Origin: a virus
Lineage: Duplodnaviria > Heunggongvirae > Uroviricota > Caudoviricetes
Reading direction: 5' to 3' (one strand)
Length of the DNA stretch: 53,605 bases
Virus record (IMG/VR): IMGVR_UViG_3300032007_000013
Positions 5,237-36,673 of the stretch are shown here, one piece after another. How positions within the stretch are numbered: the first letter of the stretch is position 1; every line of letters starts with the position of its first letter. Position numbers and translations under genes: made by a program. The notes beneath the pieces were generated by a model. It searched no databases and was not told the origin of the DNA. It was given only the letters and a program-made list of their open reading frames with translations.

Positions 5237-5467
5237 ATGAAAGAGAAGATTTTGGCTTGCCTTAATCGCTACCCCGGAGCCCGCAAACGCTTTGTTGCGT
5301 CAGAAATTCATTGCCCTGTAAATGGGATATTTCTTCATAGCTTTAGTGAGCTGGAAGATATTGGTTTTATCCAGCATGTTACTATCAATGACCCCGCAAA
5401 TATGGAATTTTATGATAAATGGTACTTGACAGATGTCGGGTATCGTGCTATAATGAATGTAGATTAA
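5237..5467 (+). CDS. Small hypothetical protein, possibly wHTH-like
   Basis: 76 aa with own promoter and RBS. Confidence 0.65.
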   Translation: MKEKILACLNRYPGARKRFVASEIHCPVNGIFLHSFSELEDIGFIQHVTINDPANMEFYDKWYLTDVGYRAIMNVD

Positions 5468-5484
5468 GGAAAGGAGTGTAATAC

Positions 5485-5904
5485 ATGGCCAAGCCTGCTT
5501 TGAATGAAAAGACTATTGCGGATTACATGAAGCGTAATAAGTGTAACCGTGAGGAAGCAATCGACCTTATCAAGTACGATATTGCTGTCGAAGATGGCGA
5601 AGAAACTGAATACGACCTTACCGAAGAACAGAAAAAGGTTGTACAGGACATGAATCGCAAGATTGACCATAAGAAACCTACTACCAAGGTCAAGAGAGAA
5701 CGCAAGCCGAACGAACTGAAAGAAGCCCTCGTTGCCGCCCTTGCTGACTTCCTTGAAAATGTCTGTGAGTTTGAAATGGTAGAGGGCGGCCTTACCTACT
5801 GCGGAGATGTGGAAATTACCAATAAAAACCGTATGATTCACTTCACCTGCAAAGATAAGGAATTTGACCTGCAACTCATTGAAAAGCGGCCCAAAAAGTC
5901 CTAA
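5485..5904 (+). CDS. Hypothetical protein
   Basis: 139 aa, GGAAAGGAG RBS, biased codons. Confidence 0.75.
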   Translation: MAKPALNEKTIADYMKRNKCNREEAIDLIKYDIAVEDGEETEYDLTEEQKKVVQDMNRKIDHKKPTTKVKRERKPNELKEALVAALADFLENVCEFEMVEGGLTYCGDVEITNKNRMIHFTCKDKEFDLQLIEKRPKKS

Positions 5905-30465: not shown

Positions 30466-31105
30466 AAAGGCAAGAAAGAAAATCTAGCGGTTGGCCATTG
30501 CTATGAGAAGTATTGTCTCCTTATACGTCCGCACTATCAAGTTCAATCGACGATAAAAACCAGGAACTTGTGACTTTCGAGATGGTTGTATAGCTCTTCA
30601 CTGGTTTCAAGAGGAAACCAAAGATGTCCTATATTGTTGTCGTTTATGCATGGTTAGTCCCTACATTAAAAGGAGGAAAACCGGCAACTTAGCTAAGCAG
30701 TTTCGCTTAACTGCCCTGCGGGGAAATAAGCAATTTAAGGGATGCTTTTCTTTATGATTAATCGAGGACGTGTGCGGTGGGAAATGTTTGAGAATCCAAG
30801 AGTTGGGAATGTAGATTAATCACTGATGTAGGAGTTATAGGCCTACGGTCGGCCAAGAGACGATAAACATTGGAGAGTTGCCACCTCTTGAAAAGTGTGG
30901 AGTGGAAATCTTTATATCTGTGCTGATAAGCCATAGGAGACATCCTTAAAGAGTTCCGTTCTTAGACCGACTACAAGGTCTTTGTCGAAATATAGAAAAA
31001 GATGTAGTTAAAGAGGAGTTTGCGTGAGACGTGAGGGGATGCCCGAAGTAGACGAAACGCAGAGGGTTGGTGGCCTCCAAAGAAGTTGACGGACCAAGAC
31101 TTCTA
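30466..31105 (+). ncRNA. ~640-nt structured RNA candidate (GOLLD/ROOL class)
   Basis: GC-rich, no RBS-led ORF, many hairpins, abuts the tRNA cluster. Confidence 0.45.
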
Positions 31106-31108
31106 TAT

Positions 31109-31261
31109 GCCGCTCTAGCTTAACTGGTTAGAGCCCGCGACTTGGAAATATCGTTTAACTGGAAAGACTGCCCGGTGTGTGCTGGGATAATATCAGTTCA
31201 AGTCTGGTTATTTCCGGCAATAATCGCGAGGTTCTGGGTTCGATTCCCAGGGGCGGCACCA
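31109..31261 (+). tRNA. tRNA-Ile (TAT or AAT) interrupted in its anticodon loop by a nested tRNA
   Basis: Acceptor GCCGCTC/GGGCGGC+ACCA; anticodon stem CGCGA/TCGCG split by a 76-nt insert. Confidence 0.8.
31144..31219 (+). tRNA. Nested tRNA-His(GTG)-like gene
   Basis: GGAAATA/TATTTCC acceptor, D arm, GTG in anticodon register, ATCAG-TTCAAGT-CTGGT T arm, ends GGCA. Confidence 0.7.
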
Positions 31262-31386
31262 TTAAAAAAAATTTTTTAGGGCAAAGAAAGAAAAAGTATT
31301 AAAAAAATCTTTCTTTAAAAATACATAAAAATCTTTCATTTGAAAATTTTAAAAAAATATTATATAATATATATGTAAGATAAATA

Positions 31387-31525
31387 AAGACAGAAACAGC
31401 AATTTTAATTTAAAAATGTTATGATTTGAGGAATCCGGTGTTGTAGGTTCGACTCCTGCCTTCCGGTTATAGGACTGGAAGTAGCTCAATCGGTAGAGCA
31501 CGAAAAAACTTTTTAAACTGTCTTG
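31387..31525 (+). ncRNA. ACAGCAA clamp RNA 1, containing a circularly permuted tRNA (YrlA-like topology)
   Basis: AAGACAG/CTGTCTT clamp; T arm 31443-31459, loop-closed acceptor 31460-31481, D arm 31484-31499. Confidence 0.75.
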
Positions 31526-31555
31526 TCATTACTTCGTAATGACGAAGTAATATAT

Positions 31556-31630
31556 GGCTCCGTAGCTCAGAGGTAGAGCGCACGCCTGTTAAGCGTGATG
31601 TCGAGATATCGTAATTCTCCGGAGCCGCCA
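31556..31630 (+). tRNA. tRNA-Asn(GTT)
   Basis: CACGC-CTGTTAA-GCGTG; atypical T-loop ATCGTAA; CCA. Confidence 0.88.
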
Positions 31631-31635
31631 TAAAA

Positions 31636-31916
31636 AATAATGGTAGTAGGCTTAGAAGTAGCCATCTTTAATGAGTAGTGATATGCCGTGTGTGAGTATA
31701 GTTAGTTTGTTGGTAAAGCTACTATGAATGGATAGAGAGAGTCAATTCCAAAGAAAACCAACCTTAAATTAGTCAGTCAAGAACGGTAACGCGGGGAGAA
31801 GCGGCTGTATATCAACCTGCGCAACGTGAAGCTATGGAGCTAATGAAGTTATGCTTGCAAGGGCGGGGCCGACCTAAATGACCAATATACTTTTAGTGTA
31901 ATAACACACCATTATT
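31636..31916 (+). ncRNA. 23S rRNA L11-binding domain (H43/H44) mimic with a ~220-nt insertion
   Basis: GGCTTAGAAGTAGCCATCTTTAATGA ... AGTGTAATAACACA, closed by 9-bp AATAATGGT/ACCATTATT. Confidence 0.7.
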
Positions 31917-32335
31917 AAATATATTAATCGGTAGTATAACCGTAAGCAAGGTGCTATACTTATGGGAAACCATAAAAGGGTGTCGTAGGTAACGACAGTA
32001 AGGCGAGTGCAAATCCACCCTATTTTTTATTTATGGCTTGTGCGCAGGTCATCTTAGTGTGTAAAGCCACACTAAATTGGAGGAATCCTCCGCCCCAGCT
32101 TAGGGGAGGAATATAAGCAGAAAGATTTGGCCCTTATTGCCAATTGTCAAAAGTATAAGTATTGTAGTATACTACACGATAGGGAGCCCTAAAACACTCG
32201 TTAGGTGGGAAGGTGAATTGAGAGTGCAATATATAACTCTACGTGGTGCCCAATGTGAAGGTGGCAATGCCGAGCTGACGGCTATAGTAAAGGGTGACAC
32301 CTATCAGCAAAAATATTTATCTTTTTTATAATTTT

Positions 32336-32411
32336 GTCTTGTTGGTATAATGGCTATTACACCAGACTCTTAATCTGTGAGATCAGAGTTTAAATCTCTG
32401 GCGAGACACCA
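32336..32411 (+). tRNA. tRNA-Lys(CTT)
   Basis: Loop CT-CTT-AA, CCA. Confidence 0.85.
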
Positions 32412-32670
32412 TAAAAGTTGCTATTAACTTTTTCCAAAAAAAATAGTCGTAGGAATATGAGATATACAAATGAATAAGAATCCCGGAACCATTGTATATC
32501 AGATAACGTGAGACCCAAGTTAGCTGTGGTTGTGGAGATGGGAAGTCCACGTAAAACTTATTAAACCAAGGCGTTAGCACTCCATTACAAACGGGGTATT
32601 TAGCTTCGAGATAGCAGGAGTGTGGGATAGCAGACCACGCGGGTGGAACCGCGAATAGGCTAATTTATAT

Positions 32671-32757
32671 GCGGAATTGCTGGAATTGGTAGACAGGCAG
32701 CGTTGAGGTCGCTGTGTTCATTAGATCGTGTGGGTTCAAGTCCCACATTCCGCACCA
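32671..32757 (+). tRNA. tRNA-Leu(GAG)
   Basis: CAGCG-TTGAGGT-CGCTG, long variable arm, CCA. Confidence 0.92.
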
Positions 32758-32763
32758 AATTAT

Positions 32764-32852
32764 GCGGGATTAGCCGAATGGCATAGGCATTAGGTTTAGG
32801 CCCTAACGAAGTTAATTCTTCATTGCGGGTTCAAATCCCGTGTCCCGCACCA
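32764..32852 (+). tRNA. tRNA-Leu(TAG)
   Basis: TTAGG-TTTAGGC-CCTAA, long variable arm, CCA. Confidence 0.9.
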
Positions 32853-32910
32853 TAGCACCTGGCAAGGTGGCAAAGTCAGCCCGTTAGACTTTAAATGGCG
32901 GGGCACCTAT

Positions 32911-32995
32911 GCTGAAATGATGGAATGGTAGACATGTCACACTCAAAATGTGATGCCATCACGGCGTGTGGGTTCAAGTCCCACTTTCAGTACCA
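32911..32995 (+). tRNA. tRNA-Leu(CAA)
   Basis: TCACA-CTCAAAA-TGTGA, CCA. Confidence 0.92.
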
Positions 32996-33158
32996 GGGCT
33001 TTATGCCTTTACAATACTACAACAATTATTTCAGTAATGTACTATGGTGGCTTTGAAGATTTCCCATCTAATTACCTAAAAGTAATAAACATAAATGAAA
33101 TCTTCTCTTATTTGAAAATTTAAAAAAAATATTATATAATATATATGTAAGATAAATA

Positions 33159-33221
33159 AAGACACAAACAGCAATTTGTTATATAACTCTTGCCGTATTG
33201 AGGGAAAATATACGTGTCTTG
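33159..33221 (+). ncRNA. ACAGCAA clamp RNA 2 (short cargo)
   Basis: AAGACAC-AAACAGCAA...GTGTCTT-G, directly after a promoter. Confidence 0.65.
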
Positions 33222-33228
33222 ATTATAT

Positions 33229-33304
33229 GGCTCCGTGATGCAGATGGTTACCATGACGGCCTGTCACGCCGTATACACGGGTTCAAGTCCCGTCGGAGTC
33301 GCCA
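33229..33304 (+). tRNA. tRNA-Asp(GTC)
   Basis: ACGGC-CTGTCAC-GCCGT, CCA. Confidence 0.92.
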
Positions 33305-33596
33305 GCCAGTTGAGAGTTAGCTGCGAAACTCCATGCTCCGCTATGAGCAATAATATTCTGGGCCGAAAGCAGGAATAATTGGTCGGTTGGTTTTGAAGTC
33401 CTTCCGTATGATTGTAGATAGAGGGAACCCGCCTAGGAAAAACACATCCTAAAGTGCTACGCAGTGGGTTAGCGTAGATATAATGAGTAGACAAAAACTG
33501 GATAGAAAGTTGGACCAGTCATTAGACCATCACTACTTAAACGGAGTTATGAGTTGCAAACGCTTTATCCGTATTTAATACAAAGCGGTAGACTAT

Positions 33597-33675
33597 GGGG
33601 CACGGGACTGCTTGGAGTGGTCGCCTCCCTTGCAAGGAGGATATCAGATGGGTTCGATGCCCATGTGTTCCACCA
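33597..33675 (+). tRNA. tRNA-Ala(TGC)
   Basis: CCTCC-CTTGCAA-GGAGG, CCA. Confidence 0.88.
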
Positions 33676-33832
33676 AGAAACTTATTGGTATGGGGTTTAT
33701 GTGTTTGTCTCCGCCAATAAGAAAAGAAACACTTTACGCTATAGGTTCGGTTCAAAAATTCCTAGCAAATAAACAATAGAAATCTCGCATAGTGAAAGCG
33801 TTCTAATAAGATGTTCAGCGTATATTTTATAT

Positions 33833-33905
33833 GGGTAAGTAGCACTCGGTAGTGCGGGATGAAGTCCACCGCGGGAAGTCAGTTCAACTCTGGCCTTATC
33901 CACCA
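33833..33905 (+). tRNA. Aberrant tRNA-like gene with a shrunken anticodon arm (GGA-TGAAG-TCC)
   Basis: Intact acceptor, D and T arms and CCA; 5-nt loop containing GAA. Confidence 0.55.
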
Positions 33906-34048
33906 TAGGTCTACTGTTTATTAGTTTTATACGACCTTATAAACGACTTAGAAACTAATATGGGGTAGCATTAAGGTCGCTACTTAATGAGATAATGTGC
34001 TCCTACACAAGCCCAAATTTATAATAAATATCTAGGAGGATATAGATT

Positions 34049-34699
34049 ATGGCATATATTTATTTAATTACAAATGATATTAATGGAAAATAGTATGTTG
34101 GAAAAACTTATAAAACTATTGAGTAGCGTTGGAAAGAACATTTAGGAGATAGAACTAAAAGAGAATTAGAAAAACGTCCTTTATATGATGCTATGAATAA
34201 ATATGGGATAGAACATTTCCATATTAAAGAAGTTGAATATGTTCCACCGGAAGTAAATTTAGAAGAACGTGAAGTTTATTGGATAGCATAGTATGATACG
34301 TATTATAATGGATACAATGCTACTTTAGGTGGAGATGGTAGTCGTTTATATGATTATAATTTAATTGTTGAAAAATATAATAAATTATAGAATATGGTTA
34401 AAGTTGCTGAAGAACTTAATATATCTAAAGATACAGTTCGAGTTGCTTTAAGAAATAATAATATATAGATTATTCCAGCTTATGAAATTACTAAAAAGCA
34501 ATATCAAAAAGCAGTAGCTCAATATGATTTACAAAATAATTATATTCAAGAATTTGAATGTTTATATGATGCTGCAAAAAGTGTTATAAATCAAGAAAAA
34601 AAAGATATTAAAGGAGCAGCAAGTCATATAGCAGATGTTTGTAAAGGAAAAAGAAAAACTGCTTATAAATATAAATGGAAATTTGTTAATAAAAATTAA
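34049..34699 (+). CDS. GIY-YIG endonuclease with C-terminal NUMOD1-like domain (code 15)
   Basis: YIYLITNDINGK*YVGKT, YNGYNATLGGDG, VCKGKRKTAYKYKWKF. Confidence 0.9.
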
Positions 34700-34703
34700 A
34701 TAT

Positions 34704-34790
34704 GGCGGGATATACCGTAAGTAGTAGCGGGGCGCACTGTAAATGCGTTGTCGAAAGACTCGGTTGGGGCAGCTCCAACTCCCGCCACCA
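34704..34790 (+). tRNA. tRNA-Tyr(GTA)
   Basis: GCGCA-CTGTAAA-TGCGT, variable arm, CCA; odd T-loop GGCAGCT. Confidence 0.85.
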
Positions 34791-34881
34791 AATTATCTAG
34801 TTCAATGGTAGTGCACTAATAAATTTAGAACACTGGCAAGTCTAGTCAGAGATTCTTGTTCGATTCAAGAGATAATTGCCA
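34791..34881 (+). tRNA. Aberrant tRNA-Asp(GTC)-like gene with an extra hairpin between the D and anticodon arms
   Basis: AATTATC/GATAATT+GCCA; CTGGC-AAGTCTA-GTCAG; TCTTG-TTCGATT-CAAGA. Confidence 0.55.
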
Positions 34882-34882
34882 T

Positions 34883-34992
34883 AAGACATATACAGCAATT
34901 TAATTTCCAGAATAGTCAAATGGTTAAGACATTTTCCTACAAAGAAAACAAATGTGCGTTCAAATCGCACTTCCGGACAAAAATATGTCTTG
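34883..34992 (+). ncRNA. ACAGCAA clamp RNA 3, enclosing a CCA-less tRNA-Cys(ACA)-like cloverleaf (34906-34978)
   Basis: AAGACATA/TATGTCTT clamp; TTTTC-CTACAAA-GAAAA arm; GTGCG-TTCAAAT-CGCAC. Confidence 0.7.
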
Positions 34993-35014
34993 AAATTTAA
35001 ATGAGGTTAAATAT

Positions 35015-35518
35015 ATGAATCCTTTAAATGTATTTAATAATCCATATTATAAATGGAAGTATCCAGATTGTTGGTTAAAAAATGCTCGAATGTTTTTTCG
35101 TAGTTTTAAATATGCTTACCAACGAATAACTCGTGGTTGGGCAAGCTGTGATATTTGGGATTTAGATAATTATTATGAATATATCATTGCTGATACTTTA
35201 AATTATTTAGCAGATAATCATTGGGGTTATCCAGGTAATGATGAATTTCCAGATGATGAAAGTTGGACTAAATATCTTAAAGATATGGCTCAAAAATTTT
35301 ATAATGGTAATGAAGAAAATAATGTTTATCCAACTCCAGAAGAAGATAAGTGGTGGCATTGGATTGAACTTCATCCAGAAGATACGATAGAAAGGTCTGA
35401 TAATCCTTATATAAAATCTATGTGCACTGAAGTACAAACTAATGCAAGTAAGCGTGAAAATGATATTCAAGAAGGTTTAAAAATGATTGCCAAAGTATGG
35501 TATCATCTTTGGGATTAA
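35015..35518 (+). CDS. Hypothetical phage protein
   Basis: 167 aa, GAGG RBS. Confidence 0.75.
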   Translation: MNPLNVFNNPYYKWKYPDCWLKNARMFFRSFKYAYQRITRGWASCDIWDLDNYYEYIIADTLNYLADNHWGYPGNDEFPDDESWTKYLKDMAQKFYNGNEENNVYPTPEEDKWWHWIELHPEDTIERSDNPYIKSMCTEVQTNASKRENDIQEGLKMIAKVWYHLWD

Positions 35519-35913: not shown

Positions 35914-35935
35914 TTATTATTAAGTCTTAAAATAT

Positions 35936-36551
35936 AAATACAAGTTTTGATAACTCAGTGCAGACTATAAGCGACTTATAGGCTGAGAAATACCGAAGTG
36001 AGGCTCGGCACGGAACGAAACAAGGATACTTGTGGATAGTGGACCGCACTTTATATCGTGAGGTATAAAGTGAACCCATGCGGGGAAAGGAAAGGTATTG
36101 TGCTAAAGTTATCGTAATTTAAAATACCCGAGGGCGGGCAGAGTAATAGAAAGCTTTGTTGATAAGACAAAGCCGAATCCAGAAAACCGCGACCGGTGGC
36201 ACGGCGTGAGAGTCTGGAAAAGCCAAACAATCTGTTGAATGTAGTTGAATAGGAGAAATCCTAGTATAACGCCTAACCAGGGTGCGAGTAGGGGAAATCT
36301 ACAAAGGCTCAAATCTTAAAGACTTGAAGATATTATATTATTGATTGGTAAATATAATTAACGATACAATTTCTGAAAGTCCCCTGAAAGTTGTGGGTAA
36401 GCAATCCCACCAAGACGAAAGTTAGCTGTAAGCTAATGTCATAGGAAGCGTCATATCGACGGGTATGAGCTCAGACCTATGGCAGCTTGTGATTGAAAAA
36501 AGTTGAAGGTAATTGGTAGTAGGGGGAAGCCCCATCAAAAAATCTGTATTT
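35936..36551 (+). ncRNA. ~615-nt structured RNA candidate (ROOL/GOLLD class)
   Basis: Ends pair (AAATAC..TTTTGAT with ATCAAAA..GTATTT); GC-rich hairpins; no RBS-led ORF. Confidence 0.55.
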
Positions 36552-36673
36552 ATATTTTAGGACTTAATTAATATGCGAGCGTAAGTTCAATTTTTTGGTC
36601 GAAAGTTCAAAATTATATTATTATAATTTTTATATAAAATGAAAGAAAAAATATAAAAAGAGGTAATATAATT

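Follow-up and report, generated by a model that had tools for sequence, protein, structure and literature searches.

The GTPase-associated centre (GAC) of 23S rRNA is among the most conserved and best-studied of all RNA domains; thiopeptide antibiotics and at least one bacterial toxin act on it, and it is required for the activation of RelA. In bacterial 23S rRNA (E. coli 1051-1108), helices H42, H43 and H44 meet in a three-way junction, and the H43 loop reads UUAGAAG and contains A1067. A1067 and A1095 line the cleft used by thiostrepton, EF-G and the incoming tRNA, and the isolated 58-60-nt rRNA domain binds uL11 and thiostrepton by itself. Mimicry of an rRNA site is the usual logic of ribosomal-protein leaders. 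These leaders, such as the L10 leader (Rfam RF00557), are partial mimics of the binding site of a stalk-base protein, and they act in cis on the mRNA downstream. Isolated GAC RNA has also been presented off the ribosome in laboratory “ribosome-in-pieces” constructs; Munishkin and Wool, in 1997, reportedly observed that synthetic oligoribonucleotides of the thiostrepton and sarcin-ricin domains bind EF-G. Among phages, pseudo-ToxI of phage PhiTE is an RNA decoy that imitates a host RNA to defeat a toxin (PMC3475682).

Here we describe a non-coding RNA gene of 281 nt that lies within the tRNA genes of a rumen jumbo phage, at positions 31636-31916 on the plus strand of the window (the whole stretch of 53,605 nucleotides that was analysed, IMG/VR record IMGVR_UViG_3300032007_000013). 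The element has the same three-way junction as the bacterial GAC and keeps the G1087-C1102 pair, the internal loop 1088-1090, the hexaloop GUAAUA with A1095 and the contact of 1072 with the 1092-1099 pair, this triple being the natural alternative U·U-A that occurs in the rRNAs of CPR bacteria and archaea. Unlike the rRNA domain, it is free-standing in a phage tRNA array, an unrelated 9-bp stem stands in place of H42, a 219-nt folded domain with an extra UUUR junction lies between 1090 and 1091, U1101 is replaced by A, the 1057-1081 pair is absent and 1082-1086 is a U·U. Ribosomal-protein leaders and the element both mimic the binding site of a stalk-base protein, but the element is a near-complete domain with no ribosomal-protein gene downstream, and no match to it was obtained with the ribosomal-protein leader families of Rfam. 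The “ribosome-in-pieces” oligos likewise present an isolated GAC off the ribosome; however, they are laboratory constructs, whereas the element is a natural gene and lacks the sarcin-ricin loop (SRL), which is added in the phage RNAs of loci L167 and L196 and in the cyanobacterial RNAs described below. The likeness to pseudo-ToxI is one of analogy only, as the logic of mimicry by a phage non-coding RNA is shared and there is no relation in sequence or structure. The features of the element and its surroundings are collected in Table 1.

Table 1. Features of the GAC-mimic RNA gene, its upstream neighbours and the cyanobacterial RNA. Positions are those of the window except where a locus is named; numbers from 1058 to 1102 are E. 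coli 23S positions.
Feature	Position	Strand	Equivalent, sequence or basis
Promoter-like site TTGAAA-17-TATAAT	31340-31368	+	11/12; consensus match only
tRNA-Asn (GTT), encoded CCA	31556-31630	+	ends 5 nt before the closing stem
Closing stem, 5' strand (H42 equivalent)	31636-31644	+	DNA AATAATGGT, RNA AAUAAUGGU
AGUA linker	start of 31645-31666	+	1058-1061; precedes the H43 hairpin
H43 hairpin GGCUUAGAAGUAGCC, then AUC	31645-31666, including the AGUA linker	+	1062-1076, then 1077-1079
UUUAAUGAGU	31667-31676	+	1080, 1082-1090; includes the 1082-1086 position, U·U in the window
Inserted structured domain	31677-31891	+	register from family covariation; RNAalifold
Insert base helix AGUG/UACU	31677-31680 with 31888-31891	+	family covariation
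Insert long stem	31686-31699 with 31851-31866	+	RNAalifold
Insert internal hairpins	31709-31714 with 31757-31762; 31729-31732 with 31747-31750	+	
Insert branch	31768-31787 with 31831-31844	+	RNAalifold
Junction UUUA (family consensus UUUG)	31892-31895	+	opposite G1087-U1090
H44 hairpin	31896-31905	+	1091-1100; DNA GTGTAATAAC, RNA GUGUAAUAAC; A1101 and C1102 follow, to 31907
Closing stem, 3' strand	31908-31916	+	DNA ACCATTATT, RNA ACCAUUAUU
Cyanobacterial SRL+GAC RNA	L046:5540-5740, plus 44 further loci among L029-L108	- (L046)	

An earlier note, made from the letters of the window, had described this element as a copy of 23S H43/H44 with both loops kept, closed by a perfect 9-bp stem and carrying a compensatory change in H44 and a structured insert of about 220 nt, and each of these parts was found in place. 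The two closing strands pair perfectly over 9 bp and close the three-way junction where H42 would stand. The H43 copy (GGCTTAGAAGTAGCC followed by ATC, 31649-31666) differs from E. coli 23S 1062-1079 at a single base of the 18, with the loop U1066-A1073 present, A1067 at 31654 and U1072 at 31659. In the H44 copy, C1092-G1099 has been changed to U1092-A1099, as the note had said, and 1072 has changed from C to U as well; as 1072 is the third member of the 1072·(1092-1099) triple, the change is a three-way compensation. The hexaloop GUAAUA occupies 31898-31903, with A1095 at 31900, and it is reached through the internal loop A1088, G1089 and U1090 (31674-31676), with the pairs G1087-C1102 (31673/31907) and G1091-C1100 (31896/31905) both kept. 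The copy in the window is not perfect: it has a U·U at 1082-1086 and lacks the 1057-1081 pair, which has been deleted on both strands at once. No open reading frame longer than 47 aa overlaps the element, including those in which TAG is read as glutamine.

The likeness to rRNA is well beyond the range of shuffled sequence. The E. coli reference string used for the comparison was found at 100% identity in the annotated 23S rRNA of all 5426 complete E. coli genomes searched. The 18-mer of H43, at 3 mismatches or fewer, occurs once in the window against an expectation of 0.01, and the best local alignment of the window to E. coli 23S scores 38, the shuffles having a mean of 21 and a maximum of 27. 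Rfam 15 models matched about 31 tRNAs, a ROOL RNA and, below threshold, a YrlA-like RNA in the window; neither LSU nor SSU rRNA was matched, which agrees with the claim of the earlier note that no other rRNA sequence flanks the element. Rfam 15 has no family that matches the element at gathering scores or at E up to 5, and BLAST searches of GenBank phages, near and distant, matched only the neighbouring tRNA. The minimum free energy of the whole element was no better than that of shuffled sequence (z-score +0.66), so the structural support comes from covariation and not from folding energy.

In order to find relatives, IMG/VR was scanned with the exact 18-mer. The form with U at 1072, as in the window, was found in 27 contigs, 23 of which show the architecture of the window element, and the form with C at 1072 was found in at least 118 stretches; these family counts are lower bounds from pattern-selected samples. 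Conserved homologs, on which the earlier note had made its reading depend, are thus numerous, the architecture being carried by more than 100 IMG/VR phage contigs, usually beside tRNAs. The order of parts is constant: one strand of a closing stem that is unrelated in sequence, then the H43 module, AAAGAGU, a variable insert, CUUUG-GYGUAANARC-ACA and the second strand of the stem. The window conforms to the junction rule of the family (GAGU/UUUR), with GAGU and UUUA strands and the base helix AGUG/UACU. No parsed member aligns with E. coli 23S over more than 300 nt, so the family does not represent rRNA contamination.

A covariance-model search, akin to the check that the earlier note had proposed, was also made. 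The model (R1) was built from 34 short phage copies, and neither the window nor its near twin L022 nor the L180 group contributed to it. Its sole match in the window is 31635-31917, at 63.9 bits (E 2.1e-15) and over model positions 1-163 of 163, and no second copy was found in the window with filters off; across 100 fetched phage loci, R1 gave 100 hits. The phage family to which the element belongs is large; it has no entry in Rfam 15, and no description of it was found in the searchable full-text literature. In one IMG/VR phage, two GAC-mimic RNAs lie in tandem (L175:5124-5362 and 5441-5708), the second with C in place of A1095. A contig of a Gastranaerophilales MAG (L079) carries a phage-type GAC mimic with a 223-nt insert in a tRNA array, and a Pistol ribozyme (L079:1325-1397, 64 bits) lies on the same contig.

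Covariation was assessed against the Rfam structure line for the region, which gives a 5-bp H42, a 3+3-bp H43, a lone 1082-1086 pair and G1087-C1102 and, within H44, the internal loop 1088-1090, the pairs G1091-C1100 and 1092-1099, and the hexaloop. Seven closing-stem positions of the family are paired in 26-33 of the 34 sequences, with 2-6 pair types each, and there is covariation across the family in the closing stem, in the lower part of H43 and at the base of the insert. For H42 (7 bp), 1057-1081, 1058-1080, the 4-bp insert helix and 1092-1099, each taken separately, 0 of 1000 column shuffles reached the observed pairing. The 1082-1086 position is U-A in 17 of the 34 sequences, C-G in 9, U·U (the state of the window) in 4 and of other composition in the remaining 4.

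The tertiary triple covaries as well. The form with C1072 and C1092-G1099 is documented in E. coli (PMC2952862). Among the 86 parsed members of the phage family, positions 1072/1092/1099 read C/C/G in 62, U/U/A in 23, the window included, and C/U/A in 1; neither C/A nor U/G was found at 1092/1099 in any of the 86, though the search expression allowed both. Where U1072 occurs in true 23S rRNAs of CPR bacteria and archaea, it is likewise accompanied by U1092-A1099. The 23S rRNA of Candidatus Phlomobacter fragariae (L098) is an exception, having U1072 yet keeping C1092-G1099. The H44 loop lay outside the selection made by the 5' scan pattern and has kept the conservation profile of rRNA: G1093 is present in 80/80 members, U1094 in 79/80, A1095 in 76/80, a purine at 1096 in 79/80, any base at 1097 and A1098 in 80/80. 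The invariance of H43, A1067 included, is in part a result of construction, as both scans used the exact 18-mer. The GAC fold, including its tertiary contacts, is under selection, and family-wide covariation that extends to the tertiary triple strongly supports the element as a stand-alone mimic of the H42-H44 L11/GTPase-associated domain.

The element sits on the tRNA strand of the array of about 33 tRNAs, and such placement is common in the family. A tRNA on the same strand lies within 1.5 kb in 65 of 85 members; a tRNA ends 30 nt or less upstream in 24 of the 85 and one starts 30 nt or less downstream in 25. The promoter-like site upstream of tRNA-Asn could drive a unit made up of a YrlA-like RNA, tRNA-Asn and the GAC-mimic RNA, as judged by its match to the consensus; promoter-like sites are no more numerous in the region than in shuffles. 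The YrlA (Y RNA-like) match, at 31414-31534 directly upstream of tRNA-Asn, scores 36.8 bits against a gathering threshold of 69; it is 86% conserved in the related phage G001, the nearest complete relative (239,565 bp, complete by CheckV), and overlaps the first of the RNAs that the earlier note had termed “ACAGCAA clamp” RNAs.

In the comparison with G001, the element is the best preserved block of its surroundings, at 96% identity; the remaining blocks that align 5' of it and just 3' of it reach 77-94%. The tRNA block at 32824-33311, which lies farther 3', is as conserved as the element. Two ORF-free blocks directly 3' of the element, 31929-32022 and 32027-32307, are 94% conserved in G001, where 240 nt are inserted between their counterparts. 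No Rfam family was found for either block, and both are probably additional non-coding RNAs of the array. The tRNA array also includes a full-length ROOL RNA (35930-36553, 292.5 bits), at a distance of 4 kb on the 3' side of the element. G001 also contains a second, divergent GAC-like RNA (L320:1500-1590, G001 200099-200189; 25 bits with R1). This RNA keeps the closing stem, GAAGUA, AUC-UUUUAAAGAGC and ACA and has a small hairpin as its insert; its H43 is shortened (GGGUUAGGAGCUC) and its H44 loop is replaced by a GCAA tetraloop.

Searches of G001 for homologues of L11, L10, RelA/SpoT and Ro60/TROVE found none, while the positive controls were matched, all 14 control genomes giving matches in the case of L11 and L10. 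As G001 lacks genes for L11, L10 and RelA/SpoT, any protein partner of the RNA is probably encoded by the host. No conserved protein gene neighbour that would point to a partner was seen in the phage family, and the larger proteins of the window are mostly of unknown family.

On this basis, we propose, with moderate confidence, that 31636-31916 encodes a stable trans-acting RNA that offers the GAC surface off the ribosome and is most likely bound by host uL11. An RNA of about 281 nt would be transcribed with the phage tRNA array and probably released by tRNA-processing enzymes, with the 3' processing of tRNA-Asn setting the 5' end of the mimic. Its two ends would fold into the GAC three-way junction (the end of H42, H43 and H44) with the tertiary contacts kept, and the 219-nt lineage-specific folded domain would project from the internal loop of H44. 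Off the ribosome, such an RNA would present the same surface as the ribosomal site. As the isolated rRNA domain binds uL11, the likeliest molecular event is the capture of host uL11. Conservation of A1095 (and of A1067, in this case by construction), both of which line the cleft, suggests selection for something that reads the cleft and not merely for a stable fold.

The complex of RNA and uL11 would then titrate either uL11 itself or a ligand or enzyme aimed at the A1067/A1095 cleft, for which the candidates are a GAC-directed toxin (e.g., an ADP-ribosyltransferase acting on H44), a translational GTPase, or RelA. Titration of uL11 could, through uL11, affect the activation of RelA, and the benefit to the phage would be ongoing translation during infection. 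A role as a decoy for a toxin aimed at the GAC is one candidate, for which a precedent is given by the T6SS toxin Tre23: it modifies H44 at 1095-1098 by ADP-ribosylation, with the result that the GTPase of EF-G is blocked (PMC8661411). The earlier note had put forward a decoy role too, naming L11, translation GTPases, the stringent-response factor and an rRNA-targeting toxin or methylase as possible targets. One quantitative objection bears on all the candidate roles, as the RNA would have to compete with ribosomes; these number tens of thousands, so it is uncertain whether a stoichiometric decoy could simply soak up a catalytic toxin or a factor that is abundant.

The insert comprises 219 nt between U1090 (31676) and G1091 (31896), at a point that the Rfam structure line places in the internal loop of H44, in keeping with the position and approximate size given in the earlier note. 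Across the family, G1087-A-G-U1090 and the opposite UUUG (UUUA in the window) form A-U, G-U and U·U oppositions that are nearly invariant and without covariation, and the first four pairs of the base helix that follows are paired in fractions of 0.99, 0.97, 0.86 and 0.74, with 3-6 pair types. As the register of this helix is fixed by covariation, the insert leaves the fold between 1090 and 1091. The insert of the window is 96% identical to that of L022 (the G001 locus) and is homologous to the inserts of a second lineage with the C-type triple (L180, L181, L309 and L317). An RNAalifold consensus of the window, L022, L180 and L181 contains 54 pairs, 14 of them with compensatory changes (for example, GUUGGU/ACCAAC against AUGCGC/GCGCAU), so the insert is a folded, conserved domain in this sub-lineage. 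It is a conserved structured domain and not a neutral spacer, and it differs completely between sub-lineages, insert lengths in the family running from 11 to about 360 nt with sequences that are unrelated between lineages.

When the insert was aligned by Smith-Waterman with E. coli 16S and 23S rRNA, the scores were within the range of shuffles, so the insert is not another piece of rRNA. The SRL motif AGUACGAGAGGA was absent, at 2 mismatches or fewer, from the window and from its insert, and no SRL motif was found in any of the T-variant inserts; of the 86 phage members, only L167 and L196, the two with the longest inserts, carry an SRL-like motif. In two IMG/VR scans with patterns taken from the insert, almost all matches were chance matches in GC-rich phages: the pattern CGCGGGGAGAAGCGGC yielded nothing new, and the sole additions from TTGCAAGGRCGGGGC were L309 and L317, near-copies of L180 and L181.

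This diversity of inserts gives weight to the explanation that takes most of the probability left by the proposal above, namely that the GAC module is only a handle or stabilising scaffold, coated for example with uL11, and that the activity is lineage-specific and resides in the variable insert, whose role could be to bind a ligand, to pair with another nucleic acid or to multimerise. We regard this as unlikely, though a serious competitor. It would account for inserts that share neither sequence nor length between lineages and yet, in the lineage of the window, are conserved with compensatory pairs, and large ornate RNAs, including the ROOL RNA of the window, share the tRNA-array habitat. 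However, the insert is all but absent from compact members (L143, L099 and the cyanobacterial copies), so the GAC module is the only constant part of the family, and the H44 loop has retained the conservation profile of rRNA, A1095 included, which also speaks against a mere handle.

The same compact members would fit an insert that is an intron, with the spliced 60-nt GAC mimic as the active RNA. This explanation is very unlikely: no group I or group II model matched 31000-35100 at E up to 5, the GAGU and UUUG strands of the junction are conserved within the structure, and the base helix shows the covariation of any ordinary RNA helix.

Finally, prokaryotic genomes were scanned, one for each species. 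A stand-alone RNA of about 200 nt, outside rRNA, was found at about 45 cyanobacterial chromosomal loci and in one Acidobacteriota MAG. It consists of a compact, insert-less GAC with the exact SRL 12-mer AGUACGAGAGGA usually about 75 nt upstream (the distance is 139 nt at two loci and 33 nt at a third), followed by a conserved 3' tail, and its terminal stem is UUGCGU/ACGCAA. The H43 18-mer is identical to that of the window, including U1072 together with U1092-A1099, and both RNAs stand alone; the cyanobacterial RNA, in contrast, has no insert, is chromosomal and carries the SRL that the window lacks. Rfam LSU models score the cyanobacterial copies above gathering on the GAC domain exactly (positions 1077-1160 or 1170-1239). 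In 15-25 loci, the RNA lies between a gene for a VWA-domain protein and a gene pair encoding a 281-aa protein and a ThiF/E1-like protein. The 281-aa protein has no match in Pfam, NCBIfam, PADLOC or Atlas, and its AlphaFold model is poor (pLDDT 58.5, pTM 0.38). No description of this RNA was found, and its existence suggests that cells use the same GAC-mimic trick.

As the cyanobacterial RNA sits just upstream of a conserved two-gene cassette, and as mimicry of rRNA sites is the habit of ribosomal-protein leaders, one could take the phage element for a cis-acting autoregulatory leader of an L11 or L10 gene. This is more improbable still, given that the element is followed by non-coding blocks and tRNAs and not by a gene, that neither protein has a homologue in G001 by searches that matched every control genome, and that the cyanobacterial neighbours are the unknown 281-aa protein and the ThiF/E1-like protein, with no ribosomal proteins among them. 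Least likely of all is that the element is a piece of host 23S rRNA, whether decayed or captured, that has no function of its own, a possibility that the earlier note had itself raised and that the near-identity of H43 to rRNA would favour: it is refuted by the lack of other rRNA sequence in the flanks, by a closing stem that is unrelated to H42 in sequence and covaries across the family, and by the more than 100 phage contigs that keep the architecture and the tertiary triple, and the 96% identity of the element between the two related phages, equalled by the tRNA block at 32824-33311, also stands against it.

It is possible, though short of probable, that large phages and, separately, many cyanobacteria make GAC replicas that recruit uL11, and perhaps the stalk base, and that serve as decoys or antidotes against enzymes or factors acting on the A1067/A1095 cleft, among which GAC-directed toxins from defence or competition systems, RelA and translational GTPases are candidates. 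A natural and widespread copy of the whole domain, encoded in trans and with its tertiary contacts kept by selection in hundreds of phages, would represent both a new class of non-coding RNA in viruses and a new form of ribosome mimicry. It would offer handles on phage control of translation and of the stringent response, on whether defence toxins act at the GAC and on the tolerance of the GAC fold to insertion. If true, the proposal would add a new layer to the conflict between phages and their hosts over a ribosomal RNA site.
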